Below are positions 9,473 to 61,417 of a stretch of 64,000 nt of DNA, piece after piece (the stretch's first letter is position 1; every line of letters starts with the position of its first letter). The stretch is from Centroscyllium fabricii (taxonomy: Eukaryota). The notes beneath the pieces were generated by a model. It saw only the letters and a list, made by a program, of their open reading frames with translations. It made no database searches and had not been told where the DNA came from. The stretch spans positions 56,358,001-56,422,000 of the forward strand of contig JBNRSN020000007.1 in the NCBI GenBank assembly GCA_051313645.2, in the 5' to 3' direction. Both the position numbers and the translations under genes were made by a program.

Positions 9473-9865
9473 GATATTATTAGACTGCCGGGGGGGTGGT
9501 GCTGGTGGAGATTATTAGACTGGTGGGGGGGGGGGGTGTGCAGGCGGAGTTTTTTAGACTGACCGGCAGCGGTGCTGTCTTCCGTCTGTGCCTCGTCTTC
9601 CGTCGGCGAATGATCGCCGCATGCGCCGATTCACTGGCCATGCCGCGGCCCGTCGGCAATTGATCTGCGCATGCGCCTATTCGCAGATCAATTGCCGACG
9701 GTCCGCGGCAGGGTCTGTGAATCGGCGCATGCGCCGATCATTCGCCGACGGTCCGCGGCAGGGTCTGTGAATCGGCGCATGCGCGGATTCTCAGAACTTC
9801 CGCGGACCGGTAAAACTGTCCCGCGGACCGGTGCCGGTCCGCGGACCGGCGGTTGGGGAACACTG
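9473..9865 (+). mobile_element. Right end of a hAT-Charlie (MER1-like) MITE with internal tandem repeats
   Basis: GCGGACCGG...GGTTGGGGAACACTG terminus followed by GTGTACAG (a hAT-type target); the left end is not seen. Confidence 0.55.
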
Positions 9866-10889: not shown

Positions 10890-11420
10890 CAGGTTGTGCG
10901 CCGAAAATCCGTGTCCCGAATAGCCGGCAGCTTCAGTCTGCCGGCACAAATTGCCCAGACTGCACTGCGCATGCGCAAGATGGCCGCCACCATCGTGGCT
11001 TCGGCGAATGATCTGCGCATGCGCCGAGCGCATGCGCAGATCATTCAAAACAGCTGCAGGTGCTTTGAATGATCTGCGCATGCGTCGCCGGACGGTTAGC
11101 GCATGCGCAGATAATTCAATACGGCCGCCGGTTATTTTCCCGACAGCTGAGCCCCGTGACTGAGGCGGACAGTCACTAGGCAACAGCTGTCAGCCTGAGT
11201 CCGGCTCGGCGGCAGCAGCAACCCGAAAGGCGATGGAGAGGGAACGCGGACCCGTGCCCGATCTGCGCATGCGCGCGCCAGCCAATCCCAATATTGTGCG
11301 CATGCGCGCGGCCATTTTGAATGGTGCGCATGCGCAGTGTCCAACCTCGTTCTCCCGGTTTTTTCTGTTTCCCGGCACGGGCCTGGTCCCGCCCGTGGCG
11401 GATTAATGGTGCACAACCTG
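10890..11420 (+). mobile_element. Tigger/pogo-like MITE, CpG-rich
   Basis: TA|CAGGTTGTGC...GCACAACCTG|TA terminal inverted repeats (TIRs) with a TA TSD. Confidence 0.85.
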
Positions 11421-11493
11421 TATTTTTATTCTTACAGTCCCCAGTTCTATGCTGCAAGGTATAAACCTAATGTTTTTGTTTCTGCTTCATCAG

Positions 11494-11567
11494 TTAAAGT
11501 GGACAAATCGTCTTCCTGTGGAACTGATGCAGTTAGTAAAGATGCTGAAAAAACAGATAAAGATACG
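11494..11567 (+). CDS. ZMYM3: Probable ZMYM3 N-terminal-region exon ([25 protein letters not shown])
   Basis: tttgtttctgcttcatcag acceptor, ACG|gtattt donor, phase 1 to 0, joins the next exon in frame. The sequence is poorly conserved, so homology is not recognisable. Confidence 0.6.
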
Positions 11568-17500: not shown

Positions 17501-20500
17501 CAGGCCACCAATCAGAAGCTGGCAGGATCCAAATCCACATCCTAACGGTTCAGCTTACTGCTTGGATCTGGCGCTGGCGCCCGTGAGTAACACCCACTCT
17601 GATCCATTTATCCTGGGAGCCGGAGAGTCTGTTCGCTTGCAGGTACGGTCCGCCCCTCTCACCCTGAGTACCAGTTGGACGGTGTCCAGTAGTGCGTGGA
17701 GGATGTCGGAATGAAAAATTCCCTACAAAAAGTGTACTCAGTGGATCCCCCAGGGATTGGTGCTGCGACCCCTAAATGACCTGGATTCAGAAAATCAATA
17801 TAAGCTGGTCAAGTTCACAGATGATACGAACTCCAAACCATCGTCAACACCTTCATGGGTCTTGCACTAAACATCCGTAAGACAAAGGTCCTCTACCTTT
17901 GATAAATTGACCCTTAGTGTTAGGGGGATTGAATGTGTGGGGTTACGGGGATAGGGTGGGATATGTGTCGGTGCAGGCTCGATAGGGATCGAGGGATATG
18001 GGGACAAAGCAGGGACAGGGTGCTGGGTTTGGATGATCAGCCATGATCTCATTGAATGGCGGAAGAGGCTCGAAGGGCCGAATGGCCTACTCCTGCTCCT
18101 ATGTTCTATGTTTCTAAACTGGGAGGGGGAGTCACCGTGGAATTGGATGTTGCTACCAGTGAATTACAGAAGGACCTGGGCAATATTTGCAATAGGCAGA
18201 ACTATGTGACGGATTAAATTCCATTAGATAAGTGCGAAGTCTTGCACATTGGAAGGTAAAAATGGGAAATGTAATGAAAGTAGTCTAACTCGGGAGAGGT
18301 TGAAAAAGACCTGTAAGTGATGGTTGATTCTACACTGACCATGTCTAGTCACTGTAGAGCAGCAACTAACCAAGCAAACAAAATGCTGAACCATATGACC
18401 ACATTGATGGGGTTTAAGCCTAAGCCACCGTGATGAAGTTGTACAGTGCTTTGAGCAGGATGTACCTTAAACACTGCTTTCAGTTTTGGTTGCTGAGTGG
18501 GAACCATTCAAGCCATGCAGCTAGTCTAGAAATGGATGATGAGATTGATCCCTAGTGTTAAAGGACTGAGTTATGAGGACTCTTTAACCTTGAAATGATC
18601 ACCTCTAGTATTGTTAGCACGATCCTTATCATTACCTCCTTTTTTGGAGAGATTAGACTGCTCTCTCCCTTGTATATATGCTGTCTTTAAATGAACTTCT
18701 CTTGCACCTGAGGAAGGAGCAGCGCTCCGAACGCTTGTGATTTCAAATAAAACTGTTGGACTATAACCTGGTGTTGTGTGACTTCTTGCATTTCTCCTTT
18801 TTAAAATTTCAGTTGAGGTTTAATCTCTCTTTATCCATGGAACTCTCATCCTGTTTTTGCCCTACAGAATATATTTATTTTGTATTCTATAAATTTTCTT
18901 TAAAATTTTCCCACCGCTGATCTGTTGACTTTGCTAGCTTTTCTGTCCAATTAATTTGGACCAAATTCCTCCTTATCTTGCTGAGCTTTGTTTTTTTCAG
19001 TCCAGTGTCCTTATTTTTTTGACTTTTTATTTACCTTTTCCAATCTTGCATGGAACCTAACCATATTGTCGCCGATTGTTCCCCCACATTTGCTTCAATT
19101 TTTTTTTGCCCTACTTAATTTCCCATAGTTAATTTAATGCGTTTCTTGTTGGATGAGAAACCTACTGATCTAGGAAGCGGTCCTGGATGCAGTCTTAAAA
19201 AAACATTTTGACGACCTGCAATACCATTATTCCAGTTCATCGTGGGATAGTTAAAATCATCCTATATTATTGCCCCGTTGTTGTTGCATATCTCTGAACT
19301 GTCAGCAGATGATCTCTTACTCATGGTGGCCTGTAATTGCACACTGAAAATTGTAATGATTCCCTTTTTAATGTTAAACTTTGTTTATATGGATTTCGCC
19401 TTAACGTAACCCACATGATGTCCTTGAGTTCTTGCATTGTGATGGAATTACATAGAAACATAGAAGATAGGAGCAGGAGTAGGCCATTCGGTCCTTTGAG
19501 CCTGCTCCGCCATTCGATGAGATCATGGCTGATCATCCAAACCCAGTACCCCGCCCCTGCCCCCTCCCCATATCACTCGATCCCTATCGAGCCTGCACCG
19601 ACACATATCCCACCCTATCCCCGTAACCCCACATATTTAATCCCCCTAACACTAAGGGTCAATTTATCCTGGCCAATCAACCTAACCCGCACATCTTTGG
19701 ACTGTGGGAGGAAACCGGAGCACCCGGAGGAAACCCACGCAGACACTGGGAGAATGTGCAAACTCCACACAGATAGTCACCCGAGGCTGGATTTGAACCC
19801 AGGGCTCTAGTGCTGTAAGGTAACAGTGCTAGCCACCGTGCCGCCCACCATATTCATTAAGAACCATACCCATGTCTTCCACCTCCACACGCAGGTTACC
19901 TTTTTGGTCTCTAATGGACCCTACTCTTTCCTTAGTTATCCTCTTGCCCCTTGATTTTTCTTGCCAATATTTTTTCATTACCTCTATTTGCTTTCCTAAT
20001 TTCCTCTTTAATTTCCCCCTGTACTTTCTGTACTCCTCTAGGCTTTCTGCAGTATTTAGCTCTCGGTATCTGACATAAGCTTCCCTTTTTTGCCTTACCC
20101 TACCCTGTATGCCCCAATTCTCTACCTCACCCCCTTTTTTCCATGATGTGGAGGTGCCGGTGTTGGGACTGGGGTGGACAAATGCAAGAAGTCACACAAC
20201 ACCAGGTTATAGTCCAACAGCTTTATTTTAAATCACAAGCTTTCGGAGCGCAGCTCCTTCATCAGGTGAAGTGTCGAGATTCATTTAAACATCGCATATA
20301 TACAGAGAGAGAGAACAATGTGGTCTCTCCCTTTTTTCCACTTCTCTCTCTGTCCTGAAAATGATATAACCAGGAATATTAATTCCTGTTCCTGTCCAAA
20401 TCTATAATGCTGCAATTATAGCTAGTATTTTATATCTCCATGGCCATTAACATTCAATCTCTCCAGTTTTGTTTTGAATGCCTTGTGTGTTTACATACAT

Positions 20501-23500
20501 AGCACTCAATCTTGACTCCAATATTTGTAATGTTCATTCTTATTATTTTTCATAGCTTTCTAGCTTGATATCCATTGCTCCTTCTACAGCAGTGTTTTTA
20601 CCTCATTAGCTTTTTTCTTTGGTATAATATTTTCTTGCTTTGTTTCAGCCAAGCCTCCTCCTTTATTAATCATGCTGTTGCTCTCAAGTCTCAAATCTAA
20701 ACTTTCCCAGCCGAATAACAACACTGAAATAGTACTCCACTCTGATCTAATGTAGTCCTCTTTCAGTCTTGGTCAATTAATGATGTTCCTCCCCCCCCCC
20801 TCACCCACCCCACCCCTACCATCCCTCAAAAATATAGAAAAAACTTTTAGAATGCATTGTTCTTTTTTCCAGGGATATTTTGAATACAAAGGAATTGGTC
20901 GTGGCACAGGCTGGGTCAAGTCAGTCCTTCCAGGAATTTTGCAATGCTACTTGCCTATCGCTTTATGAGGCTAAGCTGCTTAAACCAACTTCATCAGATG
21001 ATTCCTCAAGATGCAGTATCTGCAATAAGAAAGGAAAGGTGAGAGTGACCAGGTGGAAAATTTCCCAATTGTGCAAGTGTGTTTTTTAAATAATATTTCT
21101 GATGCATGAGGTCACAGCACAAGAGCAGATTCTTATTTCTTTTAAACACATATTTTCCTTTCTACCATCTCTCCCTTAAGTTACACATCCTAATTTCTAA
21201 TGAAGGTGGAGAATTACTCTTAAGACGAGGAACCTTCAGAAGGAATTGGTGCTGTTTATACTTGCTTTGCATTTGTGGAGGCATGCACACTAACATTTTC
21301 AAGCAAATCATTTTTACACATGCGTACAAGTGGAATCTCAACAGTGGCCTGGCTGAGGAAATGTTACTTGAACCCTGAGTAGTTGAGGTGCTACAGTTGA
21401 CCTGGGCATAGTGAGTGTGGAGGAATATCCAGGATTCCCATTCTTGATGGTTACATTGGACATTTTAATGCTTTTAACTTTATACCAGCTGTTGATGTGA
21501 ATGTCGTTCATGGTCCAGTAGCCTGTTGACATTTGTGGTCTCGGCTAATCTGGCCACGAGTAAGGGATGCAAGACTTGCTGGTACCAGTGTAATACTATC
21601 CCAGCAAAGGTTGTATGTTCGGGAGAACATTTTTGGAGGCAAAGTACAATGTGAAGCCGCATGCAACATCCCAGCACCAGGGGATTTAGTTCCTGTTGGT
21701 GATGAAATCTTTGCTGAGCAGCGCCACCAGCAGGAGCTAAGTTTTCTATACATGCATTATGCAAGGATGCTAAACTGGGCTGGGATCAAAACGTGCTCAT
21801 TTTGGCTGCATGCTCTTGGCCTCTTCCCTGCCCCCTGCCCATTCATCCTCCTCTTCTGTGTCCCCAGTCTACAGCATGTATGCTAAATGTTACTGCATAT
21901 GTTGGCTTAATTTAACACTGCGGAAGGCATTGTACCCCCCCCCCCCCCCAAAGTAATCGTTACGTTTTTGGTTTTTGAATATTATGCCTGGATTCCACAT
22001 CATTGACCACTCCTATAAATTGGTCTCTTATGGTTCGGAGTGTTCCTTTACCTGCCTGATACTTGGGTTAGTGATAGCGAGACTCAGGATTGAACAAAAG
22101 AACAGTTGCCACTGCGTCCCTGCTTAATGGACTATACCACGGACCGCCACTTGATTCTGCTCTCTTCAGTCGGCAGATTGATTACATAGAAACATAGAAA
22201 CTAGGAGCAGGAGTAGGCCATTCAGCCCTTCGAGCCTGCTCCGCCATTCAACGAGATCATGGCTGATCATCCAAACCCAGTACCCCGCCCCTGCCCTCTC
22301 CCCATATCACTCGATCCCTATCGAGCCTGCACTGACACATATCCCACCCTATCCCCGTAACCCTACATATTCAATCCCCCTAACACTAAGGGTCAATTTA
22401 TCATGGCCAATCAACCTAACCCCGCACATCTTTGGACTGTGGGAGGAACCCGGAGCACCCGGAGGAAACCCACGCAGACACGGGGAGAATGTGCAAACTC
22501 CACACAGATAGTACCCGAGGCTGGACTTGAACCCGGGTCTCCAGTGCTGTGAGACAACAGTGCTAACCACTGTGCCACCGTGCCGCCCCATTACAGATGG
22601 GGGTTCAGGCTATAAACCTCAGACAATGTATTTCAATATAAATGGAGCAGGTAAATAAACAGCATTCAGTGAAAATTTGTATTTACAGAAATGTACAGAC
22701 TTTGTGAAATTTCACAAATATCCAAGACAATGAAGACTCCTCTCCCAGGGCACATTGAACCTTGAATGGATGTTCACTTCTTGCATGCAAAACACCACTA
22801 CTGAGTCACAGACTTGGCACGTGCCCTCTTACAAATTTCTGAGGCAAATTGTGTACAGAAGTGTCATTCCAAATTCCTTTGAAATTGTGCTGAAACATTT
22901 TTATTCACACAAACCTGCATTTCCCTTAATTATATCAGATGCTTAGCCAGCCTTTGTCACTTATAAAAGATGTTTATTCCCCATTTTGAAAATCTGATCG
23001 TTCGAACTTAACATTTCGTCCATGCAGTCATCAAAGAAAGAAACTCTAGCGCCTTTCACAACGCCGGGGACGTCTCAAAAGTGCTTTACAACTAATCAAG
23101 TACTTTTCAAGTGCAGTCACTGTTGTAATATAGGAAACGTGGCATTCAACAAGCTCCCACAAACAGCAATGAGATAATGACCAGATGATCTGTTTTGGTG
23201 ATGTTGGTTGAGGGATAAATATTGGAAAGGATGCTAGGACTCCCCTGCTCCTCTTCGAATAATGTCGTGGAATCTTTTAACGCCCAGCTGAGATGGCAGA
23301 TGCCTTTGGTTAGTCAGCAATCAAGCTTGTTAATTGACTTTGCCTGCCACACTCAAATATGTACTTTCTGTGTCTTGCATAAGCATAATTAATCCTGTGT
23401 GTACTGTTATTAAGGAATTGAAATCAATTTCTTTGATCTTTGAGATCTTTGTAGTGTGAAAGAAACTTATTTATTTGTGGAATGTTAATTTAACTTGAAG

Positions 23501-26500
23501 CTATTCTGAGCCTGCTGCTTGATTGTTGCCACCCAATCTAGTAAATTTAAGCTCCTCAATGACAATCTTGTTCTCACTTTTTACCATTATTGGTAACACT
23601 GGTGGAGATGGTGTGTGTGTGTGTTGCAGCAATGCAACACGTTTGCATGCCTGCCATTTGCGTCCTTCAGCATTGCCAGTACAATTCTCAAAGGCAAAAT
23701 CCTCTCTGGAATCCAGTGTGGTCCTGGATGAGTTGGCAATGTCGAGGTCCTGAGGCACGTGAATGGCAAGTGGTGCTCGAGGCTGCAGATAATGAAGAGG
23801 TGGGCTACAACTGCTTCCCTCCCTCAAGTTTGTATTACATATTCACATAATGTTGCATAAAACTATTATACTGTTCCCTCTAGATTCTACATGAAGTCAG
23901 TAATGGAAATGTGGTCCATCGGCTGTGCAGCAACGCCTGTTTCAGCAAGTTCAGAGCAAGTAATGGCCTGAAGACCAACTGTTGTGATAATTGCGGGGTT
24001 TATTTTTACAACCGAGGGTTTATGCTTCAGTACCTCTATCATGAAGGGCAACAAAGGAGGTTTTGCAACACAGGCTGTTTGAATATGTATAAAAAGGTAA
24101 ATTTATTTGTTGTAGTTTTTTTTCCACTCCCCACATCCCTCATTTAAAAAAAAAAGCTTATTTTCCTGTGTCTCTTTCTGTACCAAATTCTTTTTCTCAC
24201 TTGGGCAGCAGGCAGGCAAGTGACTGCTCCCAGGCTTCAGTGGCGGTCAGCAACCAACAACTTGGCGTTGCAGAAGGGAAGACTTGCATTTATGTAGTAC
24301 TTTTTCATATGAACGTTTCAAAACATTTCACACAGTAAGTTACTTTCGGGGTGAACAAAATCCCACAAACGGCAATGAATTAAATTCCCAGTTAATCTGT
24401 TTTGGTGGTGTTGCTTGAGACGGGAAGCCAAGACATCGTGAAATTCCTGCTCTTCAAATACGACCACGGAAACGAGTGTTGGCGTGGGGCTTGAACCCAC
24501 AACATTTTGACCCATGCTGACTCTTGAACACTCCGGGCATGACTTGCCCAGATTTTGTTCGTCTTCCACTCCTCCCTTACTGAGCAAGTGTAACTGGTAG
24601 AAGTGTCACCTGTAATAATGGAAAAAGAAAGGCCAGTCAGCATTGGAAGGGAGAAAAAGTAAGCACCTATAATTTGGATTATAGGGTTTTAGTAAAGGTT
24701 AATGGTGGGCATTACCCCGAGGTTGTAAAATACAGTAAAACCTCATCCTATCAAATTATTCAAACCAGGACCAATCAACAACTGTACTGCTTGGCTGGTG
24801 GTGCTGTTGCATATTGAGCCCTTGGTATCCGGTGATAGGTGCGGTCTTGAATACTTGCAGCCTTTTCCTCACAGCGTTAGCTGTTCACAGTATAAATTAG
24901 TACATTTTATTTTCATTTGTGGTGACGTCCCAATCATGGAAATGAGGCACAGGCAGCAAAAAACAAGAGTTGGGTTCAAACTTCCTGCCGTTCTAAAATG
25001 TGAATTTTATTTCTGGGGCTTGATTGCAAATCGCTCTAATACTTCCTCTTGACTTCTGCAGCGGGTTGGGGGGGGGGGGTCAATTTCACACTAATGTGGC
25101 CAGAGTGCTGTCGGGTTTTTCACCTCCATGAGTATAAAACAGACTCTCTCTCAACTTGCAGCAAGAACCTATCGTTTGCACACCACCTTATGCACAACAT
25201 GGTTAGGCCAGTCTGCTTTGAGCCGAGTGAATTGTGCACAACTTGCAAGGGTTGGTGCCCCACTGTCTTTTCATTTGGTTGCATATTAATATGATCAGGT
25301 TGCTCTAGTTTGTCTTGACTGAATTAAAAAAAATACTTCCCCCCGCCCCCCCCCCCCCCCCCCAATCCTCTGCCATCCTACTTTGCTACTGTCCCAGGCT
25401 TGAATCTCCTGGAAGGGCCCATCGAGGCACCAATGTGAATGCTTTACAAGCAGCAATCCCAATGACCTGGTCCTCTTTTGTTTACCTTTCCGTCCAGTGT
25501 AGCTGCTGAGAGTGAAGCTTACCCATCCGCCTGCCACTGCCCCCTTCGACTCTACACGCTGCCCTTCGGTGATGTCATCGAAGACACAACATCAAGTTGC
25601 ACATGTACGCTGGGTGCACCCAGCTTCACCTCACCACCACCGTTTGACCCCCTCCACTGGCTGTGTTGTCGGACTGCTTGTCCAACATCCAGTCTTGGAT
25701 GAGCCACAATTTCTTCCGATTAAACATTGGGCAGACCGAAGTCATTGTCTTCAGGCCCTACCACAAACTTTGTTCCCTTGCCATTGATTCCAACCCCTCC
25801 CTGGCCGCTGCCTCAGGCTGAACTAGACTGCTGCAATCTCGGCTTCCTATTTGATCCCGAGCTGAGCTTCAGAACCGATATCCTTTCCATCACAAAAGAC
25901 TGCTTACTTCCACCTCCATATTACTGCCCGTCTCCATCCCTGCCTCAGCCCATCTGCTGCTGAAAAGCTCGTCTGTGCTTTTGTTACCTCCAGACTTTAC
26001 TATTCCAATGCTCTCCCAGTAGGCCTTCAATCCACCACACCCCATCAACTTAAGCTTATCCTAACTCACTCCAAGTCCATTTCACTCATCACCCCTGCTC
26101 GCTGACCTACACTGGGTTCCGGTCCACCATCACCTTGATTTTAAAATTCTTACCCTCATGTTCAAATCCTTTCCCCTCTCCCTATTTCTTTAAATTCCTG
26201 TAGCCCAACAACTCTGTGCATCCCCCCCCCCCCCGCCGCCCCCGAAAAAGACCAAACTCCATTTCCACTGACTCTCGTTTTGTGCATGGACCTCTTCCCT
26301 TCACCCTACTATGGTTGGCCATGCCTTCAGTCACCTGGGCTCCATGCAATAGAGTTTTCTCCCTAAGCCTCTGCCTCTTCTCCTTTCAAACCCTCCTTAA
26401 TCCCTACATCCCTGACCAATCCTTTGGTCACCCTTCCTAATATTTCCTCCTTTGGCACTCTGCACTTTTTTCCTTGCGCCTCTGTGAAGTGCCTTGGAAT

Positions 26501-38500: not shown

Positions 38501-41500
38501 GTGCAGTTTTGGTCGCCTTATCTGAGGAAGGATGTTCTTACCACGGAGGGAGCGCAGCGAAGCGAAGATTCACCAGACTGATACCAGGGATGGCAGGAAT
38601 GATGTATGAGGAGAGACTGGGTCGATTGGGCTTATATTTGCTGGAGTTTAGAAGAATGAGAGGGAATCTCATTGAAATTGTAAAATTCTAACGACTGGAC
38701 AGACTAGATGCAGGAAGGATGTTCCCGATGGCGGGGGAGTCCAGAACCAGGGGTCACAATCTAAAGGTAAGGGGTAAGCCTTTTAGGGCAGAGATGAGGA
38801 ATTTCTTCACTTGTGAGTGGTGAACCTGTGGAATTCTCTACCAGAAAAGGCAGTTGAGGCCAATTCATTAAGTATATTCAAGAAGGAGTTAGATATATTA
38901 AGGCTAAAGGGATCAAGTCATACGGGGAGAAAGCAGGGACAGTGTACTGAATTTAGATGATCAACCATGATCTCATTAAGTGGAGCAGGCTCGAGAGGCC
39001 GAATGGCCTACTCCTGCTCCTATCTTCGATGTTTCTATGAAGTAGATGTCCCAGCATGCTAGGTTTGAAACTTGCAACCCTCTGTCTGTATACAGTTTCT
39101 CTTTCTGGTTCTTGAACTTTGACCATGCCCAGCTAAAGGAACTGTAGTCAGCAAATGTTAGCTTGGGGTATTAAACTAATTTTACATGGTGGGCCTGATC
39201 TGACGTCCTGGCAGTTGGTGTGGGCCATATTTAGCAAAGGTTAATTGGGCACTCTGGTGTAAAAACTGGTATGCGTTTTGTCTTTTTTTTCGGCATAAAA
39301 GGGGTGCAATGTAAACCAATTTCAGGATGCAGGGGCCTGCACCTAATCGGCGACGGCATGAACGCAGTCTTATTGGTCATCACTGGTTTTTAGGTATTGC
39401 TGTCGGCCGCCTGAAATCGACATTGCGGTATGAAATTTAAAAGGTGCAGTTCTTCTGGATGGTTAGAAGCAGAGCCTGGGAGCTTTGTTTTGTATTCTGA
39501 TAGGCTCGGCAACCTTAAGTGCAGGACAGTGGACTAAACTGTTCTGCGGGCCGGATACACACCACAGGTGATGTGTTTGATACCCCAATTCCAGGTCATG
39601 GTGTTGATTTAGTGTTGTGTCAAACTCCAGTCGGGACTTCTTACAAAGAATGCTGGATCTTTGGACAATTCATTAATTAATTAATCTATTTATTTATTTA
39701 TTTAATTATTAATAATAATAATAATAATAAACTCAATGTAACCATCGCCCCCACAGTTTATCTAATAGCTTGCTGGAAAAGCTGACTTGGTTGTCTTCTG
39801 TTAAAGTTACAAATTGTGTAATTTCTTGTGATTACCATTAACTTTAAAAAGAAATCGTTTTCTAAAACTCCACTATTTAAAAAGTTCTGAGCTGCGCAGA
39901 ACGACCAGTTTATTTTCTGAAGGGAAATGGGCCAGTTTTGGATGAAGTGAAGTGTAAATTTACTGCTTGCTGTGGTGGCAATGCAATTCAGAGCAATGTT
40001 TGTTTGGACTGATATTTGGAGGTGGGGTGCATTGATTGACCAGGAGTGTGGTGCCTTCATGTCATTCATTGTGTACATTTGAAGATGTTAAAATAAGAGC
40101 ATTATTGTTTCAATGGCCATGGTCATTGCAATTCAGAGGACCATGTGATGCTTGCTTAAGAGATGAATATCAGGTTTGTTTAAATCCTTAATGTTTGACT
40201 CAAAGCTGCCATGTACCAGGCATACGGTTCATAAATACCATCCCTTAAGAGTATTCATTCCTGGTCACTTTATTTTTCTGTTAATTTTGAAAAATTGTCC
40301 TTGCAGCAATCCAGCCCTGAAGGCAGCATACAACTTAACTGCACGTACTGCCATAATATCTTCAATGGGAAACCGGAAATACTGGACTGGCAGGTAAGGG
40401 TTTGATGGTTTGTTCATGCACTCCATATGTGCTTAGTGCTGGAGGAGTGAATGAAGTTTGGAAATTTTAGATGGTAATTGCTCCCTCTCTCCTGCATTTA
40501 TTATCGTTTTTTTGGTCGTTGTATTCTGATGGGCCACGTTTCATCTTGCCAAATGTTCATTCATAGAGTCATGGTTGAAAGGCTATCATTTTTACTACAA
40601 AAGAGAGAGATTAAAATGTAAGTGTTCTGGTGAAGGTAGTAAAACATGAAACGGGGTGAGGGAAGGGTGGCAGAATAGCCTGCAAAGAAATTGAGAACTA
40701 AATAAGTAAGTATGGGCCTCCATGATGAGAGTAGTCATCAAAATAGTACAAATAGGTACAGTGCAAACATGCTATGACAAACGTTATTATGTTTAATTGG
40801 AAATATAGAATGCAAGTTACGTCCCAAACTGCTCTTTCAATACTGTAGCTCTGTATTTAGTTCCCACTCACTCTTGTGTGAAATTCCCACTCACTGCTTG
40901 CTTATGATATCCTCCAACCCGTTCATTAAAAGCAAGCAGTTTTTTGGCTTCTGTTTACAAGGTTTGTAAAAAAAAATTTAAAAAAATCAATTGGGAGGCC
41001 TATTTAAATTCACAAAAGCTTTTAAAAATAAATAAATTAGCATTTATTTTTTTCCCTTGGCTTCTAGTTTAATTCTGAATTTTCTCCCCATACTCCATCT
41101 CTGCTCAAAACAGAAGTTTGTGTAGGGAACCGTTCCACAGTCCTTCAGTGGCTGAACTCGCCATTCTTTAAATCCGAGCTTAGTGAGTGTTGGCTTGTTA
41201 TTTGCTGTGGTGCATCACAGCTAATCTGATTTTATTGTTGCCTGCCTTGGAGATGTGTGTGCTCTTCCAATAGAAGTCACTACTGAACAGTTAGGAGCAG
41301 GGACCATTCCTTCCTCGACCTGCCCAAGATCAGATCAGACCGAGGAATACCTCGGCCAGTTGCAGCATTACTCTGCTGAGCAGACTGAGATGAGCTTACT
41401 CCACACAGGCCAGAGATCGAACTTGGGACTTGCTGTCCAGTTTAATATCACCCATTAAGTCATTGGGCCGGGCTACTTGTTTATGTTTTACATGGGGCCA

Positions 41501-44500
41501 GAAATTAGCCCTGGAGCCTTCGTGCGAGTGCAGTGCTCCTATTTGCACTTACCCAGCACTTTTTCCGTTTTGAATTTTTGCACTGTGACCTTCCGCGTTG
41601 CACAGCTTGTCAGAGCTCTGTGCAAACTGCTTGTGCAAATGAACGGCGTAATTAGTTCGAGATCTCCCATGAGATCATGTGATCGGCAGGGAGCCAATCA
41701 ATGGAAGCAATCCTCCATTCAAAACTTACACGGAGAAATCTGTGTAACTTTTGAAAAGAGAGATCTTCCAAAACACATCTAAACTCAAAAATAAAATTTT
41801 AAAAACACCACATTTTTTAACAGTACTCCAACTAACATAAATTACCTATTTTAACAGGCCTAAAAGAATACTTACCTGTCTTTCAAGTTAACAAAAATTA
41901 TAAACCTGAAAGAACAACACTTGAAATCAATAAAATAAAGACTTGCCTGCTAAAAATGGGTGCTTACGACTGGTATTTTCAAGCGTAGAATCTTCAATAC
42001 TTACCCCGTTGAAAATCTTTAAAAAAAACAAAAACGGAATGCCACTGCGCACCTCCTGGTGCGCAGGTTCGTGCGATAATCAACGCAGCAGCTTAACTCC
42101 ACCCCTTGCTGGCCGCCTTCGGAATGACATGGAGCAGCTGCAAAAGGCTGCTTCATGCGATTTGGAGCTTGGATGCGCTTGCACCTGAGCTCCAAATCAT
42201 AAATAGCGATCGGAAATACTGGCCCATGAACTTTGTTCAGCTGACCTGGTTTCATGTTTCTTGCTGCCAGCACTCAGAGGTCCTGGAAAGAGAACCATGC
42301 CTGTCTCCTGCTGGCCAGCAAAAAATGAAGAGGCATTGGTAAAGGGCCTGGCCGTCTCCTGCAGATAAAGCTATGTGTGTGTGGTGTGTGTGTGATTTTC
42401 TACCATATTAGGCAAATGCAGCTGTCCATTTACCCACACACAGCAGATAAACACCCAAATAATCTGTTTTCACAGCATTGCTTGAGGGATAAATGTTGGG
42501 TAGAATAAGGGGAGAGCATTTTTGCTCTTCAAATGGTGCCAAGGGATCTTTTATATCCACTTGACTGCCTCAGTTTAACATCCATCTGAAAGAGAGCACC
42601 TCTGAAATGGCAGCACTCCCTCAGTACTGCACATGCGTGTCAGCCCAGGGTATTTGTTGAAGCCCTGGAGTGGGGCTTGAAGCATGAACTTCTGACTCAG
42701 GAAAGAGGATTGCCACTGAGCCAAAACTGAATCTACACACAGGGTATTCTTGGGGTGAGAAATGAATCGTAGCTAGATACAGGACACTTCTTTTATATTA
42801 AAAAAAAAGCCAGCAATGGGTTGTCTGTTCTGATCCTATTCTCACTTTCTTTTGTTGCAGCAGGTGAGTTTCAGAGCAGGCAATTAATTTACATGGATTT
42901 TTCCATTTTTGGCTAAGTGGAAATTGATTTGAATACTTTGTTTTTTGTTTTAAAAAAAAAAGCATTTGTATGTTCATATATTGTGCATATTCTAAACAGC
43001 AAAGAAAGTAACTAAGTCACTCCTAAGTCAACAAAGGGGGGGAAATGACTACATTTAAAATTAATGGGAGAGGACAGCAGTTTTTTTGTTTGAGCTTGGG
43101 TATTTACTTTTTTTCCCTCTTTTTAGGGCAGTGTTCGGCAGTTTTGTTGCAAAGTATGCTGTGAAGATTATAAGAGGCTGCACGGTGTTGTCTCGGTCTG
43201 TGAATATTGCAAACAGGAGAAGATACTACATGAGAAGATTAAGTTTTCGGGAGTAGAAAAGAATTTCTGTAGTGAAGGTATGATCTCAGAAACTAATCGA
43301 GCAACCCCATGCAGAAAAAAAATGGGTAGAATTTTAGCATTATGACACAAAAGGGTGAAGGCTCCCAAACCCATGCCAAAGATAACTATCTTTAAATGAT
43401 CTAATTGCCGGTTCCTTTGTTTCTGATTTCAATGCCCAAATCTCTCTCCAGCTTGCCGTTCCACTGGCGGTGATCATTTTTGCTCCCTCAAGTTAGTTCA
43501 CTAAACTTGAATGTACCAGATCTGGCATAGCCACGTGAAGCATTGCAGTGCCTTGTTCTTTGTCAGCCAAAACCATCTACTACTCTAGAATCATCTTGGA
43601 GGGCATGGACAGCCCAAGAGTCATCTCTTCTACATGGTTGATCACCACCTCAAACCCACACCTCCAATACAAAGTGTGAAGGGCTCATTGATTTATTTTC
43701 GAGATTGAGAACAGCCACACAGTTGCTTCTGCCTCTAGCTTCTCTTCTCCCCATCTCACCCTCTGCTCCTGACCTCCTGTCAACTGCCCATTTATCATTT
43801 CCTTCCATCTTGCCCTCTGCCCATTTCAAGCTCAGCCCTTCCACGAGACTCATCTCCTGTTCCCTTGAATCCTCCACACTCAACTCTTAACCACTCAACA
43901 ACTCCTCTTGAGCCCCATGCTAGCTGACATTGTTAATGGCTCACTTTCCTCAGCCACTGACCCTCTCCCTACAAAGCTGCTGTCATCAACTCTCTCAAAA
44001 AACCTGTCATTCCCAACTATCAATCCACCTGCAGCCTCCTTTTCTGAAAACTCAATATTCTAACAATTTCGTCCAGTTTTTGTCCTGCTTCAAATACTGA
44101 GACTGCCCTGGTCAAAGTCACAAATGCCTCCCTGTTTGACTGTAATTGCAGTGCATATCCCTTTGTCCTCCGCACCTCTCTACAGCATTGACATTGTTGA
44201 CCAGGTCATCTTCCCCCATTACCTCTCCAAGCTGCTCTTGCTTGATTCTACACTTCCTTGTCCAAAAGCAGCGATACTTTTCTGTGTTCCTGCACTGTCA
44301 TCTCGAGTCTTCCTAGGATCTGTACTTGGGTCCACTTCCACTTCATCTGCATGCTGCCCTTGGATAATCTCTTGTATATGCTGATGACACCGAGCTGTAC
44401 TTCTCTACTACTTCTCTCAGAAGAACATAAGTAGGAGCAGGAGCAGGCCATACGGCCCGCCAGGCCTGCTCCGCCATTCAATAGGATCAAGGCTGATCCG

Positions 44501-50500: not shown

Positions 50501-53500
50501 CTTTAGTTATGAGGATGGACTAAAGAAACAGGAGATGTGATGAGTGTACTCAGAATTAAGGGGTTTGATGAGGTAAGCGGGGAAAAAAATGATATTGGTT
50601 GGTGAATTGACAACGGGGCAGGGAGAAAAACATTTAAAATCACAAAAAAAGCAATAAGAGCAAAGATTTTTTTTTTTAACTGAGGGTTAACTTGTGGAAG
50701 GCTTTTCAAAAGGAAGTCCATAAATACAGTAAGTGAAAAGAACAATTCATAAAGGTACGGGGTAAGGGCAGGGAAATAGGACTAAATAGCTCTTTCAGAA
50801 ATCCGGCACAGGAACATTGGGCCAAATGGCCTCCTGTGCTGTAAAATTATTTGACTTAATGGTTGAGCAGGTGAGTTCCTTCTAGGCCACTTCTAATGCC
50901 AGTGTATCAGTGAAGATGCAAGTGGCCTGGGGGATAGCTCTGGAAGCTTCTGCTTGACTGAAGAGCTCAAAGGACAAACTTGTGAGTCGGCAGTGATCAA
51001 CCTCGAGTGATTGTTTTTTGCACCATGTGGTGGGCCATGATGTAGTGCCCAGATATATTATTTAAAAACCTTTTTTATGTTGTCAAAAAAGGAAGAAAAA
51101 TTTGAAAAAAATATTCATTGTGCTATTGTCCAAGAAAACCTGTTCTATTGTGATGTTACTTGTCCTGACATTAGCTACCGTGGCGGTTTAAAAAAAAATC
51201 TATCTTCCGCTGTTTCTCCACAGGCGTATTGCGAACCCGGATTACGCAGGCAGCCTTAAACAGAGGCATGGATATTTTCTTACAGATGATAGTGTTGTAA
51301 TTAGGACATTGAATTTCACCATCTTGTCATTCAGACTTCGCAACAAATCTTACCTTTTTCCCCCTTCCTCACAGAATAATGGATCTGTGGAACAGACTCC
51401 TGGCAAAAGCAGTTAATGGTGTCGATTAACTCCATCAGAATAAAAGGCTGGATAAGTATCTGGCTAGGAATGCGATTTAAGGTTATAGAGATAGGTACAG
51501 ACAGAGATCATCAAATGCTCCATGGAACACGGTGGTTCCTGTACTGCTGGGACCATGAAAATGTCATCTGCGGCGAGCAACTGGCCAGGTTTGAGTGACT
51601 GTGGATAGATATTGTGGAGGCATGTTCAACCTTCTTGGGGGTGGGGAGAAATTTTGCAGAACTTTCCCTCAGGTCATTAAATAAATGTGGTAGAGCCCGT
51701 GATAGGGCAGGTTGTACATGGTCTGTGGAAGGAGCAGGCTTGATGGACTGAATGGCCTTTTTCTCGTTCCATGCTTTGTGTTAACAGCTGTGACCTGCCT
51801 TGTGCAACATGTTTGTTTGGGTGCGGAAGGTGACTGCTTCCTAATTGTTCACTGTGTCCTTCAGGTAGCCAGATGCCATGCCTGCAAACGTCAGGGCAAG
51901 CTTCTGGAAACGGTACACTGGCGCGGGGAAATTAAACACTTCTGCAACCAGCAATGCCTCTTGCGCTTCTACAGTCAGCAAAACCAGCCCAATCTAGCGA
52001 CGCAGAAGGGACCTGAAAGTCTGCTCAACAGTAAGTGGGTAGAGAAAGCCGCATGTTGTAGGCAGTGGACGTAATAAACTAGTTGAGAAATTACACCACA
52101 GTACCAAATGGTGCTTTGCTAACTACGGAATTAATAGTTGTTGATCTGTTGGCCATTTCACAGCAACCATTGGGACATGACCGCTTGACTGTTCTTAGCT
52201 GATGTTTGCGAGTTCGAATCTTCGCTGTATCAGCTGTTACCTGTGCATCTCTGTAAATTTGCAGTAATTGTGTCATTACAGGTAATTCCTCATTCACTCT
52301 GTGCGTAATTGCACATCAGTGATCTAGTGCTTTATCGCCCAGTGTTCTCACTATTGGGTGCTGAATGAAAGCAGACCCTAAACTGAATAAAATTGTGATA
52401 AACTTGGCAGTTTATGTTTGTTTTTAAGAAGAGACAAATGTAAGAATGATTGCAGCCAGTAATTCAACTTCCCTCTTCAGATAAATACTTAAACTGCTAC
52501 AGCTTTACTTTTGCTGTTCTGAACCTCTCCGATTACTGCCCTTATAATTGCACTCCTACGTATTTTCTCACTGATACATTTTCTTCTTCTGGGGAAGGGG
52601 TAGCAAGACCTCCACTTGCATACAAGAACTAAATCCATGTGTGCTGTTTGCACATGCACTTGTATGAAATTAGTTTTTCTTTGTCATTAGTTTTATTTTA
52701 AAGCTGCTGTTTCTTCCATTACTTAGTTGGGAAGTCTCTCACCCAATAATCCGGGGTGATGAGAGGGCGAGGTGCCTGACTCCATCTATCATCCTGACTG
52801 CAGAGAGGTGCTCGAGTGGTTCAGTGATGACAAATGTTCCCCCTTAACTTTGTTAACGGGCTGTGCAGCCTATTCAAATTTCCGTGCGTGTGCGGTTTTC
52901 CCGTTAAAAAGCCGGCGAGCCAACTGCGTGGGACCTCCAGACCGTGCAGCTTAACGGGGACATTGGTGATGGCACTCGCCCATTTCTTCTGAGGATATAG
53001 CGGACCTTTTCTTGACCCTGCTCCACAATGATGCTGTTCAGAATGACAGCTGAACGGCTTGAGCTGAATTGAAAGCACAATTGTTGATGCTGTTGTCATT
53101 CTTACAATCATTTTTATGAAAGAAAATCAATTTTGTTGGTAGTCTGCACCAAAGTTCCCTGTAATTTTTTTTTTGGGTGGGGTTGCGCGGCTCATTCAAA
53201 TTACAGCACATGCATGGTTTTTCTATTGAAAACTTGGCTGTGCGAGACCCCTGGAGCACTGTTTGGCCATGCAGATTACAGGGAACATTGGTCTGCAGAG
53301 GATGCTAATTTTCCACCTCAGTAATGTGAATCTCCCCTGACCTCCGTGTAAAATAAATTTATTTATACAGGACCTTTCACAACCTAAGGATGTCCAAAAG
53401 CACTTCATAGCCAAACAATTAGTTTTTGAAATGTAGTTGTTATTTTCCAGGCAAACAGCAGTCAATTTGACCATAGCAAGGTCCCACAAGTGCAATGGGA

Positions 53501-59500: not shown

Positions 59501-61417
59501 GTTTCTATAACCAGGCAAATGTGGAAGGATGCTTCTCCTGCCCTCGACACATTGCGCATCTCCTGATTTATTAATGAGGATCATCTTTCATTCGTGCCAG
59601 CTGCTATTGGCTCGATGTTGCAGGCAAAACTCTTGGCTGCTCTCGTTAATTGCCTTGCTTGGAGCATTACCGCCAGGAGGCCTGCAAGTAATATTGGGAG
59701 TTGGGAACTAGTGCAAGTGACTGGGGATCATCCTTTGAGCTGTGTAAGGCATGCAAGCATTGTGTAAAGAGGGTAGGGTAGGAAAGCCTTTAATTTACCC
59801 TGTGACTGCTAGTGTAACAACACTTTTTAATAGGGTAACCTATAAAATAGGACAATGGAATATATTCATATCCATTGTTGGTTTTTGAGTGGGCTGTCCT
59901 TGAATTTCTAAAATATTAACTAGTCACAAAAGAGTTTTTTCCACTTACCTCTGTGCCTCATTAATTAGAGCCATTTTTCCCCTCATTTTTTGGTGAATTG
60001 TCATGGGCAAAGCAAACCCCACCATCCCACTTTTGAACTGTGGGGTGGGGGGGGGGGGTTTGCAGCCATACCTCTAGGCCACTGACCCAGCACAACAAGA
60101 GGTGAATGATACACTGACAAGTTTACAGGTGCCTCCCTTTTATCATTGGAAGCGGTTTATTTATCTTTTAACAAGTGTTCCTGCAGAATGACTGACACTG
60201 CAGTGCATGTCCCCATTTCCAGAGTGTCACCCATCCCCAATGATTGTGATGACTTTTAGCTCTGCCCAAGTTTGAAATGGATATACAACCTCTTATCTGA
60301 AACCCTTGGGGCCAGATGTGTTTCGGAATTTTGAAAGTTTCACACTGAAATTAAACTCAAACTCACAAAATAACACAAAATATCAGAGAGCAGCAGAAGC
60401 ACGTGTGACTGGTAGCAGCGCTGAGACACAAATGACTCCTCACACCTGCGTGGGTCAAGCGTCGGCCAAGTCGGGTCCTGTTTGGCACAACTCGGGTCAT
60501 GTCGTGCACACGAGTGACGCTCCACAAAAAAAGAGTTTTCAGAGCTTTTTGATTTTTGGAATTGCCGATAAGGGGGTGTATTACCTGTATAATATTTTGG
60601 TTAAATGTGTTTTTATTGAATTTGTTTGCAGTCTGTGTAAGTGGTAAAATTAAGTTTCTTTTGTTGTTGTTGTTCAGGTTTTTGCATGCAATCTCTGTAT
60701 TGAGTAGGTTTAGCAATACCTAGTTCCAATTTAAATCTTCTTCCACTTTGTCCCAATTAAATCTCAGTTTACAGCCAACTTGGGTTGAATTGTAGTTTTA
60801 TGCAGTGGGCTCATGCCTGGTAGGTACTTGGTTGAACTGCAGAAGACTCATTTTACTTAACTGGTTTCAGGTTGCACAGTGTCGTGACCTTTTTCTCCCA
60901 TTGGTCTGAGCTGAATTCAAATCCAAATCCCAGATGTTAGTGTGTGCGCCCCACGGTGCTCTTGAACCTGTTCATTCAGCTACCAACATTTAAACATTTT
61001 TTTTTTAACCGTTTCATTTAGGTACGCTAACGAAATGTATTGAACATTTATAATATTTCAAAAATGAGAAATAACTAGCATATTTGTGTTTTGTCCCAGA
61101 AACTCTGTTTGGTCGTACGCCATGCACCTGTTGCACGACTCGCGCAGACTAGTGCAAGTACAGAGATGTGCAGTAGTGACCTCAAATGACTTCCACATTA
61201 TTACGTGGATGATTTTTGGAAAAAAAAATAACAACTTATTGAGGTTTTGTAAACATGCACACCCACAAATGTGCACACTCTCAAACGTGCACAGTCACAA
61301 ACATTGGCTCAGTTTGTTTCAAACAATCTGTGTCTTTTGTTTGCAGATGAGGCGCAGGAGTCTAAGAATGCGACGTCTCCGACTCCCTCTCCGACTCCCT
61401 CTCCCACGAAATTTGAA
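11494..61417 (+). CDS. ZMYM3: ZMYM3 ortholog, partial multi-exon CDS: join(11494..11567,11686..11752,13078..13429,20873..21038,23884..24096,30472..30622,33201..33316,40307..40393,43127..43277,48428..48600,51865..52030,61347..61417). The 5' and 3' ends lie outside the window.
   Basis: The spliced translation gives tandem MYM (CxxC...FCxxxC) fingers. Stretches such as [75 protein letters not shown] and [40 protein letters not shown] match recalled vertebrate ZMYM3. All introns are GT-AG and all phases join without stops. Confidence 0.93.
11686..11752 (+). CDS. ZMYM3: Probable ZMYM3 exon ([22 protein letters not shown])
   Basis: ttgcag acceptor, AAAG|gtaagt consensus donor, phase 0 to 1, in frame with the exon at 13078. 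Confidence 0.7.
12310..12653 (-). mobile_element. Rex1/Babar-like LINE 3' end
   Basis: The minus strand encodes [44 protein letters not shown], followed by a short UTR and a (TTGAA)n tail. Confidence 0.8.
13078..13429 (+). CDS. ZMYM3: ZMYM3 exon with an AQ/AEAQ repeat and the first MYM finger ([31 protein letters not shown]...CTFCN)
   Basis: Polypyrimidine tract plus cag acceptor, AA|gtaagc donor, strong ZMYM3 similarity. Confidence 0.95.
13880..14045 (-). mobile_element. 5'-truncated HE1-like SINE (tail only)
   Basis: Matches the tail of the full-length copies. Confidence 0.8.
14100..16233 (+). mobile_element. CR1 LINE 3' portion with tail, interrupted at 15559..15804
   Basis: RT motifs, [14 protein letters not shown] and a CR1 3' UTR. 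Confidence 0.93.
15559..15804 (-). mobile_element. Short non-coding retroposon with a Rex1-like tail, nested in CR1
   Basis: GTATT TSD (15554-15558 and 15805-15809), (TTGAAA)n tail, GC-rich non-coding body. Confidence 0.65.
16548..16665 (-). mobile_element. SINE/CR1 3' tail fragment
   Basis: (CATAGAAA)n followed by GGAGCAGGAGTAGGCCATTCGGCCCTTCGAGCC. Confidence 0.75.
17901..18116 (+). mobile_element. 5'-truncated HE1-like SINE
   Basis: Reverse complement of the 3' half of the minus-strand copies. Confidence 0.8.
18646..18793 (+). mobile_element. Short Penelope-type insert with a mutated hammerhead (GAAA to GAAC) at 18704..18740
   Basis: CTCCTTTTT repeated on both flanks; homologous to the other copies. 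Confidence 0.75.
18800..20130 (-). mobile_element. Ancient CR1 endonuclease-region fragment interrupted by a SINE (copy at 1..1180)
   Basis: Minus-strand YRPP and (G/D)DFNYP APE-endonuclease motifs. Confidence 0.55.
19451..19846 (-). mobile_element. HE1-like V-SINE
   Basis: Same sequence as 501..896. Confidence 0.88.
20233..20269 (-). ncRNA. Minimal hammerhead ribozyme motif with a canonical CUGAUGA core
   Basis: Same as 1283..1319. Confidence 0.75.
20873..21038 (+). CDS. ZMYM3: ZMYM3 exon ([33 protein letters not shown]...[10 protein letters not shown])
   Basis: ttttttccag acceptor, AAG|gtgaga donor, phase 2 to 0. Confidence 0.95.
22185..22589 (-). mobile_element. HE1-like V-SINE
   Basis: Same sequence as 3243..3644. 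Confidence 0.88.
23033..23315 (-). mobile_element. Deu-domain SINE (SacSINE1-like) fragment; duplicate at 4088..4370
   Basis: AGTCACTGTTGTAAT.TAGGAAAC...CCCACAAACAGCAATGAGATAATGACCAGAT...GATGTTGGTTGAGGGATAAATATTGG, recurring in several copies. Confidence 0.65.
23884..24096 (+). CDS. ZMYM3: ZMYM3 exon ([38 protein letters not shown]...[13 protein letters not shown])
   Basis: ctctag acceptor, AAG|gtaaat donor, 71 intact codons. Confidence 0.95.
24272..24510 (-). mobile_element. SacSINE1-like fragment; duplicate at 5322..5560
   Basis: Shared core plus the tRNA-head remnant GTGGGGCTTGAACCCACAAC. Confidence 0.5.
25430..26530 (+). mobile_element. L2 LINE 3' fragment (partial copy at 6470..6939)
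   Basis: [14 protein letters not shown](V)TSRLxYSNAL-type remnants and an L2-type 3' end (TGTGAAGTGCCTTGG...TATAAAT). Confidence 0.75.
26860..28205 (+). mobile_element. 5'-truncated CR1 LINE
   Basis: [25 protein letters not shown] and [13 protein letters not shown] motifs; (TTTCTATG)n tail. Confidence 0.93.
28777..30392 (-). mobile_element. 5'-truncated CR1 LINE
   Basis: Minus-strand CR1 RT/C-terminal ORF fragments, tail at 28777. Confidence 0.93.
30472..30622 (+). CDS. ZMYM3: ZMYM3 exon ([50 protein letters not shown])
   Basis: Long pyrimidine tract plus cag, G|gtacta donor, MYM finger. Confidence 0.95.
31345..31756 (+). mobile_element. Tigger/pogo-like MITE (same family)
   Basis: TA|CAGGTTGAGCACCGTTAATC...GATTAACGGTGCTCAACCTG|TA perfect TIRs. 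Confidence 0.9.
32155..33078 (-). mobile_element. RTE-clade LINE, 5'-truncated, with a 20-bp TSD
   Basis: [43 protein letters not shown] and a C-terminal CPTC...HLQTH knuckle. TGGTTCTGGGGTAGTTGAGT occurs at 32135-32154 and 33079-33098. Confidence 0.9.
33201..33316 (+). CDS. ZMYM3: ZMYM3 exon ([39 protein letters not shown]); absent from the ORF track
   Basis: ttattacag acceptor, CAG|gtaaat donor, phase 1 to 0, MYM finger motif. Confidence 0.93.
35029..35645 (-). mobile_element. Longer member of the same Penelope-type family, with a degenerate hammerhead (35081..35118) and a large fold-back
   Basis: 35029-35300 is homologous in reverse orientation to 9100-9360; hairpin at 35271-35504. Confidence 0.7.
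35700..36108. mobile_element. GC-rich MITE fragment, Harbinger-like end AAAATCGCCCCC
   Basis: GGCGGG/CCCGCC-rich internal inverted motifs and a TIR-like end. Confidence 0.4.
37140..39039 (+). mobile_element. 5'-truncated CR1 LINE containing a nested SINE
   Basis: CR1 RT motifs and 3' tail. Confidence 0.92.
37517..37848 (-). mobile_element. HE1-like V-SINE (short-tail subfamily) nested in a CR1
   Basis: Splits the CR1 PVDV|VYLDFQKAFD motif; ATGT flanks both sides. Confidence 0.88.
39672..39730. repeat. AT-rich compound microsatellite (ATTA)n(TATT)n(AAT)n
   Basis: Read directly from the sequence. Confidence 0.85.
40307..40393 (+). CDS. ZMYM3: ZMYM3 exon ([29 protein letters not shown])
   Basis: ccttgcag acceptor, CAG|gtaagg donor, 29 codons resembling ZMYM3 SPEG.I.L.C.YCH..F.GKPE.LDWQ. 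Confidence 0.93.
41495..42225. mobile_element. PIF/Harbinger-like MITE
   Basis: ATG|GGGCCAGAAATT ... AAATACTGGCCC|ATG: short TIRs with a 3-bp TSD. Confidence 0.6.
42405..42730 (-). mobile_element. SacSINE1-like fragment
   Basis: TGAGGGATAAATGTTGG...GCAGCACTCCCTCAGTACTGCAC...GGAGTGGGGCTTGAA...CCACTGAGCC. Confidence 0.6.
42861..42863 (+). other. Candidate 3-nt microexon (CAG, Gln) or recursive-splicing AG|GT site
   Basis: ctcactttcttttgttgcag-CAG-gtgagt: a strong acceptor followed immediately by a perfect donor inside a phase-0 intron. Confidence 0.55.
43127..43277 (+). CDS. ZMYM3: ZMYM3 exon ([50 protein letters not shown])
   Basis: Pyrimidine tract plus tag, G|gtatga donor, phase 0 to 1. 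Confidence 0.95.
43560..46000 (+). mobile_element. Old L2 LINE remnant interrupted by CR1 and SINE tails
   Basis: C/T-rich L2-like sequence, YADDT-like atgctgatgacacc, and an aaaggtgctatacaa end. Confidence 0.55.
44420..44925 (-). mobile_element. CR1 3' end nested in an old L2
   Basis: [28 protein letters not shown]; (CATAAGAA)-type tail. Confidence 0.9.
46872..47430 (+). mobile_element. Young CR1 3' end with an uninterrupted C-terminal ORF
   Basis: [15 protein letters not shown]...[15 protein letters not shown]...GY* followed by the 3' UTR. Confidence 0.92.
48428..48600 (+). CDS. ZMYM3: ZMYM3 exon ([58 protein letters not shown])
   Basis: tctgcag acceptor, AAG|gtcagt donor, very close to recalled ZMYM3. 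Confidence 0.96.
49300..50845 (+). mobile_element. Ancient, highly decayed CR1
   Basis: Residual LVK.QL.HCVQFW..YLRKD and CR1 3' UTR-like sequence. Confidence 0.6.
51375..51775 (+). repeat. Ancient CR1-type 3' end with a long UTR; homologous inverted copy at 61850..62140
   Basis: Shared blocks ATCAAATGCTCCATGGAACA..GTGGTTC.TG...TGCTGGGAC and TTTTGCAGAACTTTCCCTC. Confidence 0.6.
51865..52030 (+). CDS. ZMYM3: ZMYM3 exon ([55 protein letters not shown])
   Basis: ccttcag acceptor, A|gtaagt donor, last MYM finger in the window. Confidence 0.96.
53355..53785 (-). mobile_element. Near full-length SacSINE1-like SINE
   Basis: L2-like tail, Deu-like core and tRNA-like head (CTCAGAGGTGAGAATGCTACCACTGAGCCA). 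Confidence 0.65.
54588..54910 (-). mobile_element. Tigger/pogo-like MITE (same family, reverse orientation)
   Basis: TA|CAGGTTGTGCACCGTTAATC...GATTAACGGTGCACAACCTG|TA. Confidence 0.9.
56165..57020 (-). mobile_element. CR1 3' portion with a duplicated terminal motif
   Basis: [17 protein letters not shown]...RPHLEYC on the minus strand. Confidence 0.9.
57128..57345 (+). mobile_element. Unclassified LINE-type 3' end
   Basis: KTWNSLP-type remnant (AAACCTGGAACTCCCTACC), then AATAAATGCTGGC and an A-rich end. Confidence 0.45.
58228..58400 (-). mobile_element. SacSINE1-like 3' fragment
   Basis: AAAGTGCTTTACAGCCAATGAAGTA...GTAGTCACTGTTGTAATGT.GGAAAC. Confidence 0.6.
58968..59494 (+). mobile_element. 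Tigger/pogo-like MITE with an internal GC-rich minisatellite
   Basis: TA|CAGGTAGAGCAC...GTGCTCAACCTG|TA; internal repeats of CCGAACGCGGGCTGGGCCGGGACT... Confidence 0.88.
60283..60587 (+). mobile_element. Older Tigger/MER2-like MITE
   Basis: CCTCTTATCTGAAACCCTTGGGGCCAGATGTGTTTCGGAATTT ... GATAAGGGGGTGTATTACCTG|TA. Confidence 0.6.
61347..61417 (+). CDS. ZMYM3: ZMYM3 exon ([24 protein letters not shown])
   Basis: tttgtttgcag acceptor, GAA|gtaagt donor, phase 1 to 0. Positionally equivalent to the S/T/P-rich linker following GPESLLN. Confidence 0.8.

Follow-up and report, generated by a model that had tools for sequence, protein, structure and literature searches.

A well-formed but unproven three-nucleotide exon in a shark ZMYM3 intron, probably a cryptic site masked by a predicted RNA hairpin

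NAGNAG tandem acceptors form a known class of splice site. Microexons of the SRRM3/4 class have a strong donor, but their pyrimidine tract and branch point lie at some distance from the AG, and 74–79 % of them carry UGC in the gap between tract and AG, according to Bonnal et al. (bioRxiv 10.1101/2024.09.17.613571). For neural microexons, Randazza et al. (PMC12871342) give a median branch distance of 45–47 nt and an accessible branch-to-AG region. In the cryptic microexons repressed by the exon junction complex (EJC), as described by Blazquez et al. 2018 (PMC6224609), a donor lies no more than 15 nt past the acceptor and removal in two steps leaves a tiny exon, or none, of an annotated host exon. 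The recursive and distal exonic sites of Hoppe, Udy and Bradley 2023 (PMC10156609) consist of YAG/GT with a pyrimidine tract, and a YAG-ending exon can there act as an acceptor, causing exclusion.

The window, meaning the whole 64,000-nt stretch of the Centroscyllium fabricii genome that was analysed, includes a phase-0 intron of ZMYM3 in which an acceptor AG is followed by CAG and then directly by a donor, GTGAGT. Both the intron and this geometry, with a perfect donor about 260 nt (263 nt) from the next ZMYM3 exon, had been described in a sequence-only reading and were found as described. The features, in positions of the window, are as follows.

40307..40393, + strand: flanking exon 5′ of the intron, with CAG as its last letters and GTAAGG as its donor; encodes the first half of the seventh MYM/zf-FCS finger
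40394..43126, + strand: ZMYM3 phase-0 intron, 2,733 nt
41468..42265, no strand assigned, bounds approximate: high-copy repeat within the intron
42494..42721, no strand assigned, bounds approximate: another high-copy repeat within the intron, whose end lies about 100 nt 5′ of the predicted hairpin
42841..42858, + strand: pyrimidine tract, with 14 pyrimidines in the 16 positions from −20 to −5
42859..42860, + strand: first acceptor AG
42861..42863, + strand: candidate 3-nt exon CAG (Gln), whose own AG is the second tandem acceptor
42864..42869, + strand: consensus donor GTGAGT
42968..42973, + strand: weaker donor-like TTT/GTATGT, at which a host exon of 104/107 nt containing an in-frame stop could end
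43127..43277, + strand: flanking exon 3′ of the intron, 151 nt, encoding the remainder of finger 7 together with finger 8

The 3 nt between AG and GT keep the frame, and CAG/GTGAGT fits the MAG/GURAGU consensus of a strong 5′ splice site. With CAG CAG in tandem, two possible acceptors are separated by three bases, as in NAGNAG sites; unlike in those sites, a donor stands directly after them where exon sequence would be. The letters had been read correctly as allowing two products, which would be an additional Gln or a zero-length exon. AGCAGGT occurs once in the 2,733-nt intron. The nearest preceding AG ends at −48, which leaves a 47-nt AG-free zone 5′ of the candidate acceptor. Branch-like motifs, called by the YTNAY rule and not by SVM-BP, were found at CTGAT (A at 42833, −28) and CTCAC (A at 42844, −17). 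The sole TGC within 140 nt (42856–42858, −5 to −3) overlaps the YAG of the acceptor. A second AGCAGGTGAG, at position 50866 of the window on the + strand, is without a pyrimidine tract.

The candidate resembles SRRM3/4 microexons in being 3 nt long and in frame, in its strong donor and long AG-free zone, and in that the insertion would fall in a surface loop. It differs from them in having its tract beside a strong AG, branch motifs that are close and predicted to be paired, and UGC only within the acceptor. When a set-back branch and tract with a weak acceptor were looked for, the tract was found at −20 to −5 and the branch adenosines at −17 and −28. Because the acceptor is of the constitutive type, the site was not filed as an SRRM3/4 microexon; the SRRM3/4-dependent neural isoform suggested by the sequence-only reading finds no support in a tract that abuts the AG, with UGC at −5 to −3 only and branch motifs at −17 and −28.

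The host gene had been named as ZMYM3, and this was borne out by the 3′ exon (43127–43277), which is 96–100 % identical to cartilaginous-fish ZMYM3-like proteins. A shark protein aligns exon after exon along the window, and nine zf-FCS stretches were found in a related protein. A contig of sequencing run X1 (possibly the source of the assembly) covers 42730–43350 with zero differences and run X2 matches at the site, so an error of assembly does not account for these letters. Elsewhere X2 differs by an A-tract change at 42799 and a 9-nt deletion at 42978, which leave the hairpin and the splice signals untouched. The site is single-copy and lies outside both repeats of the intron; a repeat origin was rejected.

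Folding predicted a hairpin of 24 pairs, 5 of them G-U, at 42819–42885, with the following predicted parts.

42819..42833, + strand: left arm of the outer helix, 15 pairs (4 G-U) with 42871–42885; ends at the branch-like A 42833
42841..42847, + strand: left arm of the inner helix; holds CTCAC (A 42844) and pairs with the donor side, 42862–42868
42871..42885, + strand: right arm of the outer helix

The predicted energy was −27.9 kcal/mol on the sense strand (z −4.68) and −14.2 kcal/mol on the antisense strand (z −2.09). When the core was fixed and its flanks were shuffled, 1 of 2000 sequences was as stable; with random genomic flanks the figure was 64 of 2000. Among 700 random windows, 16 had z ≤ −4 and 15 were equally strand-asymmetric. 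Burial at z ≤ −4.5, with equal freedom of window placement, was seen for 4 of 298 background GTRAGT sites and for none of 32 motif-matched sites, one of which reached −4.37. Since only about 1–2 % of random donors are buried so well, selection on the hairpin is possible. A search of Rfam over 42800–42900 gave zero matches at E up to 5. The hairpin is flanked by a second inverted repeat (21 nt, 86 %; 42709–42729 and 42904–42924), the left arm of which lies at the end of a repeat element.

The donor (42864–42869) is predicted to be paired with a probability of about 1.0. Opening it in the pre-mRNA would cost a predicted 8.5 kcal/mol, versus 0.7–6.7 kcal/mol for 12 real ZMYM3 donors. In modelled first-step products the cost is 3.9–4.0 kcal/mol and the donor is still mostly paired (mean unpaired 0.18–0.28). 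For the two branch-like sites the predicted opening costs are 5.9 and 12.6 kcal/mol. Over −30 to −1 the mean unpaired value is 0.53, within the 0.30–0.70 of real ZMYM3 acceptors, and the branch adenosines, AG and donor are predicted to be paired. Access of U1 and U2 to the site is predicted to be poor. The ctgat and ctcac motifs pointed out in the sequence-only reading are present as letters, but as independent signals they do not stand, as both pair with the donor side in the predicted hairpin. Because the donor side is complementary to the branch-like motifs and to part of the tract, the splice signals are not independent, and we infer that one decayed inverted repeat could account for much of their coincidence.

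Background rates were obtained from 799,600 bases (40 stretches of 10 kb, both strands), which held 45 strict acceptors and 298 GTRAGT. The strict acceptor rule was drawn up after the site had been seen, and the site passes it; under this rule the product of the background rates gives a chance of 6e-5 for one such intron (any triplet) or 4e-6 (CAG), and about 300 (any triplet) or 23 (CAG) equally strict sites are expected genome-wide on both strands. The candidate is rare for its own intron, yet expected in a genome-scale scan. A looser rule found seven microexon-like sites in the background, one of them 3 nt long. Another look-alike, a 3-nt (GCC) or 9-nt exon with GTGAGT, is found on the minus strand of one background stretch (L058, about 1590–1600).

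Genome-wide, a tight pattern matched three places, namely the candidate and two copies of one repeat. A wider pattern, from which the candidate is one letter off, had 50 matches; 30 were fetched, of which 25 fell in three repeat families and 5 were unique. As controls, a pattern with a broken donor (GT to CT) matched 8 places, and one with the first AG broken (AG to AC) had 18 matches at 5 places (14 in one tandem array). A reversed-pattern control (0 matches) was dropped because reversal makes a CG. After repeats were collapsed, there was no clear excess of the motif in the genome. The three repeat families (12, 8 and 5 of the 30 fetched loci, L009–L038) carry a tract, AG, CAG and GTRAGT in each copy and are a ready source of microexon-like sites.

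Evidence for use of the site was sought in 563 proteins, 250 of which yielded a ZMYM3-type junction. The junction was normal in 249 and shorter in one, so that the added-Gln isoform proposed in the sequence-only reading has no counterpart, with one extra residue, among these 250. All 147 paralogue-type junctions were normal. The spacer of the finger holding the junction is 19 aa in all 41 distant relatives scored, while other fingers have 18–23 aa. An extra residue was absent from all 62 cartilaginous-fish proteins with the exon, including the 15 listed of a 17-member Logan cluster (tissues unspecified). Isoform pairs from sharks, rays and gar that differ by one residue do so at other junctions and in no case at this one. 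A search for short proteins across the junction gave one match, an intron read-through. Protein P0446, lizard-like by sequence, reads through the entire 189-nt orthologous intron, in which YAG followed by 0 or 3 nt and GTRAG is impossible under any codon choice. The ZMYM4 intron in this genome has no such site. Contigs from the four sequencing runs contain no splice joint and those of X3 and X4 do not cover the site; these runs have no bearing on expression. A metagenome scan found two distant loci of 45–46 % identity (L039 being uninformative), and among solved structures there was no sequence match and no fold match at E ≤ 0.001.

STAR and HISAT2 miss exons under 8–10 nt, according to PMC7821500, so gene models are weak negatives here. 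ZMYM names were absent from the supplements of PMC7821500 (8 files), PMC9303857 (12 of 18 files) and PMC4317164 (without file 1). Literature searches, with VastDB, the 2014 Irimia catalogue and bioRxiv supplements outside their scope, found no paper on a ZMYM3 microexon.

The mouse MicroExonator table lists 2,984 microexons and draws on 271 + 18 datasets in which brain is strongly represented. It contains zero rows for chrX 101.40–101.42 Mb, which we take to be the position of Zmym3, and as a control a neuronal 6-nt microexon at chrX 101.59 Mb, presumably in Taf1, is present. All eight CAG triplet exons in the table are unannotated and have weak sites (U2 score 64–75), unlike the strong candidate site. 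By cluster, six are excluded, one belongs to another cluster and one is unclustered. Regulated or included triplets were 0 of 8 for CAG versus 8 of 22 for AAG/GAG (one-sided Fisher p 0.055). The exclusion of the CAG triplets agrees with a tendency, reported in PMC10156609, for YAG-ending cassette exons to be more often excluded.

Other features of ZMYM3 and its paralogues were recorded along the way. A sequence of about 18.7 kb that ends at an N gap (6940–7139) recurs directly beyond the gap at 99.4–99.5 % identity (1–6939 and 7140–25899 of the window). It duplicates five ZMYM3 exons, the first copy having a frame break near 4974, and from the sequence it is probably a false assembly duplication. 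At the exon beginning at 40307, an initial Gln is variable between the models of whale shark and bamboo shark (2 of 57 are without it), likely via a tandem acceptor; in this window the codon at 40307 is CAA, so there is no tandem acceptor. Many ZMYM3 models from sharks and rays jointly skip the exons at about 51865–52030 and 61347–61417, a loss of 79 aa that takes in the last MYM finger; the exons at 48.4 kb and 51.9 kb are skipped in some models. Judged from these models, exon skipping elsewhere in ZMYM3 is conserved alternative splicing. The equivalent intron of ZMYM2 contains an in-frame, stop-free stretch of 30 nt (L002:932–961), preceded by an AG with a short tract and followed by GTGAGT. 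This stretch is unrelated to the candidate, fails the strict acceptor rule and has no stable fold, and none of the 53 ZMYM2 junctions from cartilaginous fish (59 proteins) contains it.

Our preferred reading, at a probability of roughly 0.6, is that the site is cryptic and nearly silent, a strong acceptor that runs straight into a consensus donor and is hidden by the 24-pair predicted hairpin. The odds that we attach to this and to other readings are judgements and were not computed. The reason for the preferred reading is that the predicted hairpin would cover both branch-like adenosines and the donor. The site may have arisen by chance, probably via a decayed local inverted repeat, given that one arm of the hairpin provides both branch-like and pyrimidine letters, and may persist because it is masked and harmless. 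By the normal route, the entire 2,733-nt intron would be removed in one step. Used alone, the acceptor would give a transcript that meets a stop nine codons into a 417-nt extension. On rare use of the acceptor, the exposed donor would remove the last 263 nt and so avoid the stop-containing extension; joining at the second AG would yield the normal mRNA and joining at the first an mRNA with one more Gln. Masking together with such a two-step rescue could let the decoy endure beside the real acceptor. Contrary to a silent site, the candidate is much rarer than chance per intron, free of repeats, near an exon and in frame, and its Gln would lie in a surface turn. These features are all compatible with a real microexon.

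A regulated 3-nt microexon, used in neural or other tissue and confined to sharks or cartilaginous fish, would add a Gln at the tip of the β-hairpin of finger 7, and its inclusion would depend on regulators that unfold the RNA hairpin. The consensus-strength donor, the AG-free zone and the preserved frame are as expected of such an exon, and in an AlphaFold model of a related fragment the junction falls in a two-residue turn between strands 43–47 and 50–54 with pLDDT >90. Spacers in other fingers of the same protein span 18–23 aa, and annotation overlooks exons so short. UGC is absent from 21–26 % of SRRM3/4 microexons (bioRxiv 10.1101/2024.09.17.613571), a very strong donor can drive inclusion without SRRM4, and for the AGAP1 microexon a stem-loop was predicted around the exon and placed downstream by probing. 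Against this stand the lack of any longer junction among the 62 cartilaginous-fish proteins and the 250 ZMYM3-type junctions and the spacer fixed in 41 of 41, the constitutive-type acceptor and the predicted pairing of the branch motifs. The missing mouse row (at the presumed Zmym3 position), for microexons of a kind reported to be conserved from shark to mammals, also counts against it, as does the exclusion tendency of YAG-ending exons (PMC10156609). We regard this reading as unlikely. Even more doubtful is a routine recursive site, in which the upstream exon is joined at the second AG and the intron leaves in two ordered steps with an unchanged mRNA, the hairpin hiding the donor until the branch arm departs with the lariat. 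The final CAG of the upstream exon would indeed regenerate the consensus donor CAG/GTGAGT, the predicted donor opening cost drops from 8.5 to 3.9–4.0 kcal/mol after step one, and recursion predicts unaltered proteins, which the junctions match. As downstream donors to define a recursive-splicing (RS) exon, the candidates at 42968 and 43008 are weak; the donor of the next exon would be the other choice. Lariat data place recursive sites across a wide range of intron sizes, but sawtooth-type vertebrate sites lie in introns with a median of about 550 kb, compared with 2.7 kb here, and recursion in short introns is called stochastic and less frequent (PMC10156609). The branch sites for step one would be hidden by the same hairpin (5.9 and 12.6 kcal/mol), and the EJC represses donors at or just past a new junction (PMC6224609).

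A further reading makes the hairpin itself a self-gating splice switch, in which the donor of an exon of one codon is paired to the branch point and becomes free only after the acceptor has been used; this we hold to be improbable. We give equally little credence to its other part, in which the choice of AG would yield either normal ZMYM3 or a shark-specific form with an extra Gln in a finger otherwise fixed in length. Finally, the hairpin might have been selected for its own sake, for example as a substrate for editing or as a small RNA structured within the intron, with the splice-like appearance as a by-product. The strand asymmetry speaks for selection (5 G-U on the sense strand; −29.3 versus −15.8 kcal/mol). 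The absence of an Rfam match at the site speaks against it, as do the 16 of 700 random windows at z ≤ −4 and the 15 of 700 as asymmetric, and a 7×2 internal loop with the donor on the 3′ arm is a misfit to pre-miRNAs and mirtrons. We consider selection on the hairpin alone very improbable.

If the site is cryptic and silent, as we prefer, it is ordinary, since chance alone should place tens to hundreds of perfect-looking microexons in a 7-Gb genome, and it would show that inverted repeats can yield a branch-like motif and a donor at once. If it is used, it would serve as a small natural experiment on two questions, namely whether RNA structure can put the steps of recursive splicing in order and whether an exon consisting only of CAG can be retained, and would mean a new isoform in a chromatin-protein finger of invariant length.

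From its letters, the candidate appears to be a well-formed but unproven cryptic site. It is like the EJC-repressed cryptic microexons in the position of its donor just past the acceptor, and in that at most a tiny exon would remain after removal in two steps. In those systems the host exon is annotated, whereas here it would itself be cryptic (104/107 nt, or the 417-nt extension with its stop), and the signals of the candidate, known from sequence alone, are held in a predicted hairpin (comparison with PMC6224609). To the recursive and distal exonic sites it is related by YAG/GT with a pyrimidine tract and by the capacity of a YAG-ending exon to act as an acceptor and cause exclusion; it departs from them in that the ‘exon’ is the YAG alone, the intron is 2.7 kb and the site was read from the DNA and not from lariats (PMC10156609). 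By analogy with these two studies, the nearest mechanism would be the two-step cryptic microexon (PMC6224609), together with the distal recursive sites (PMC10156609).
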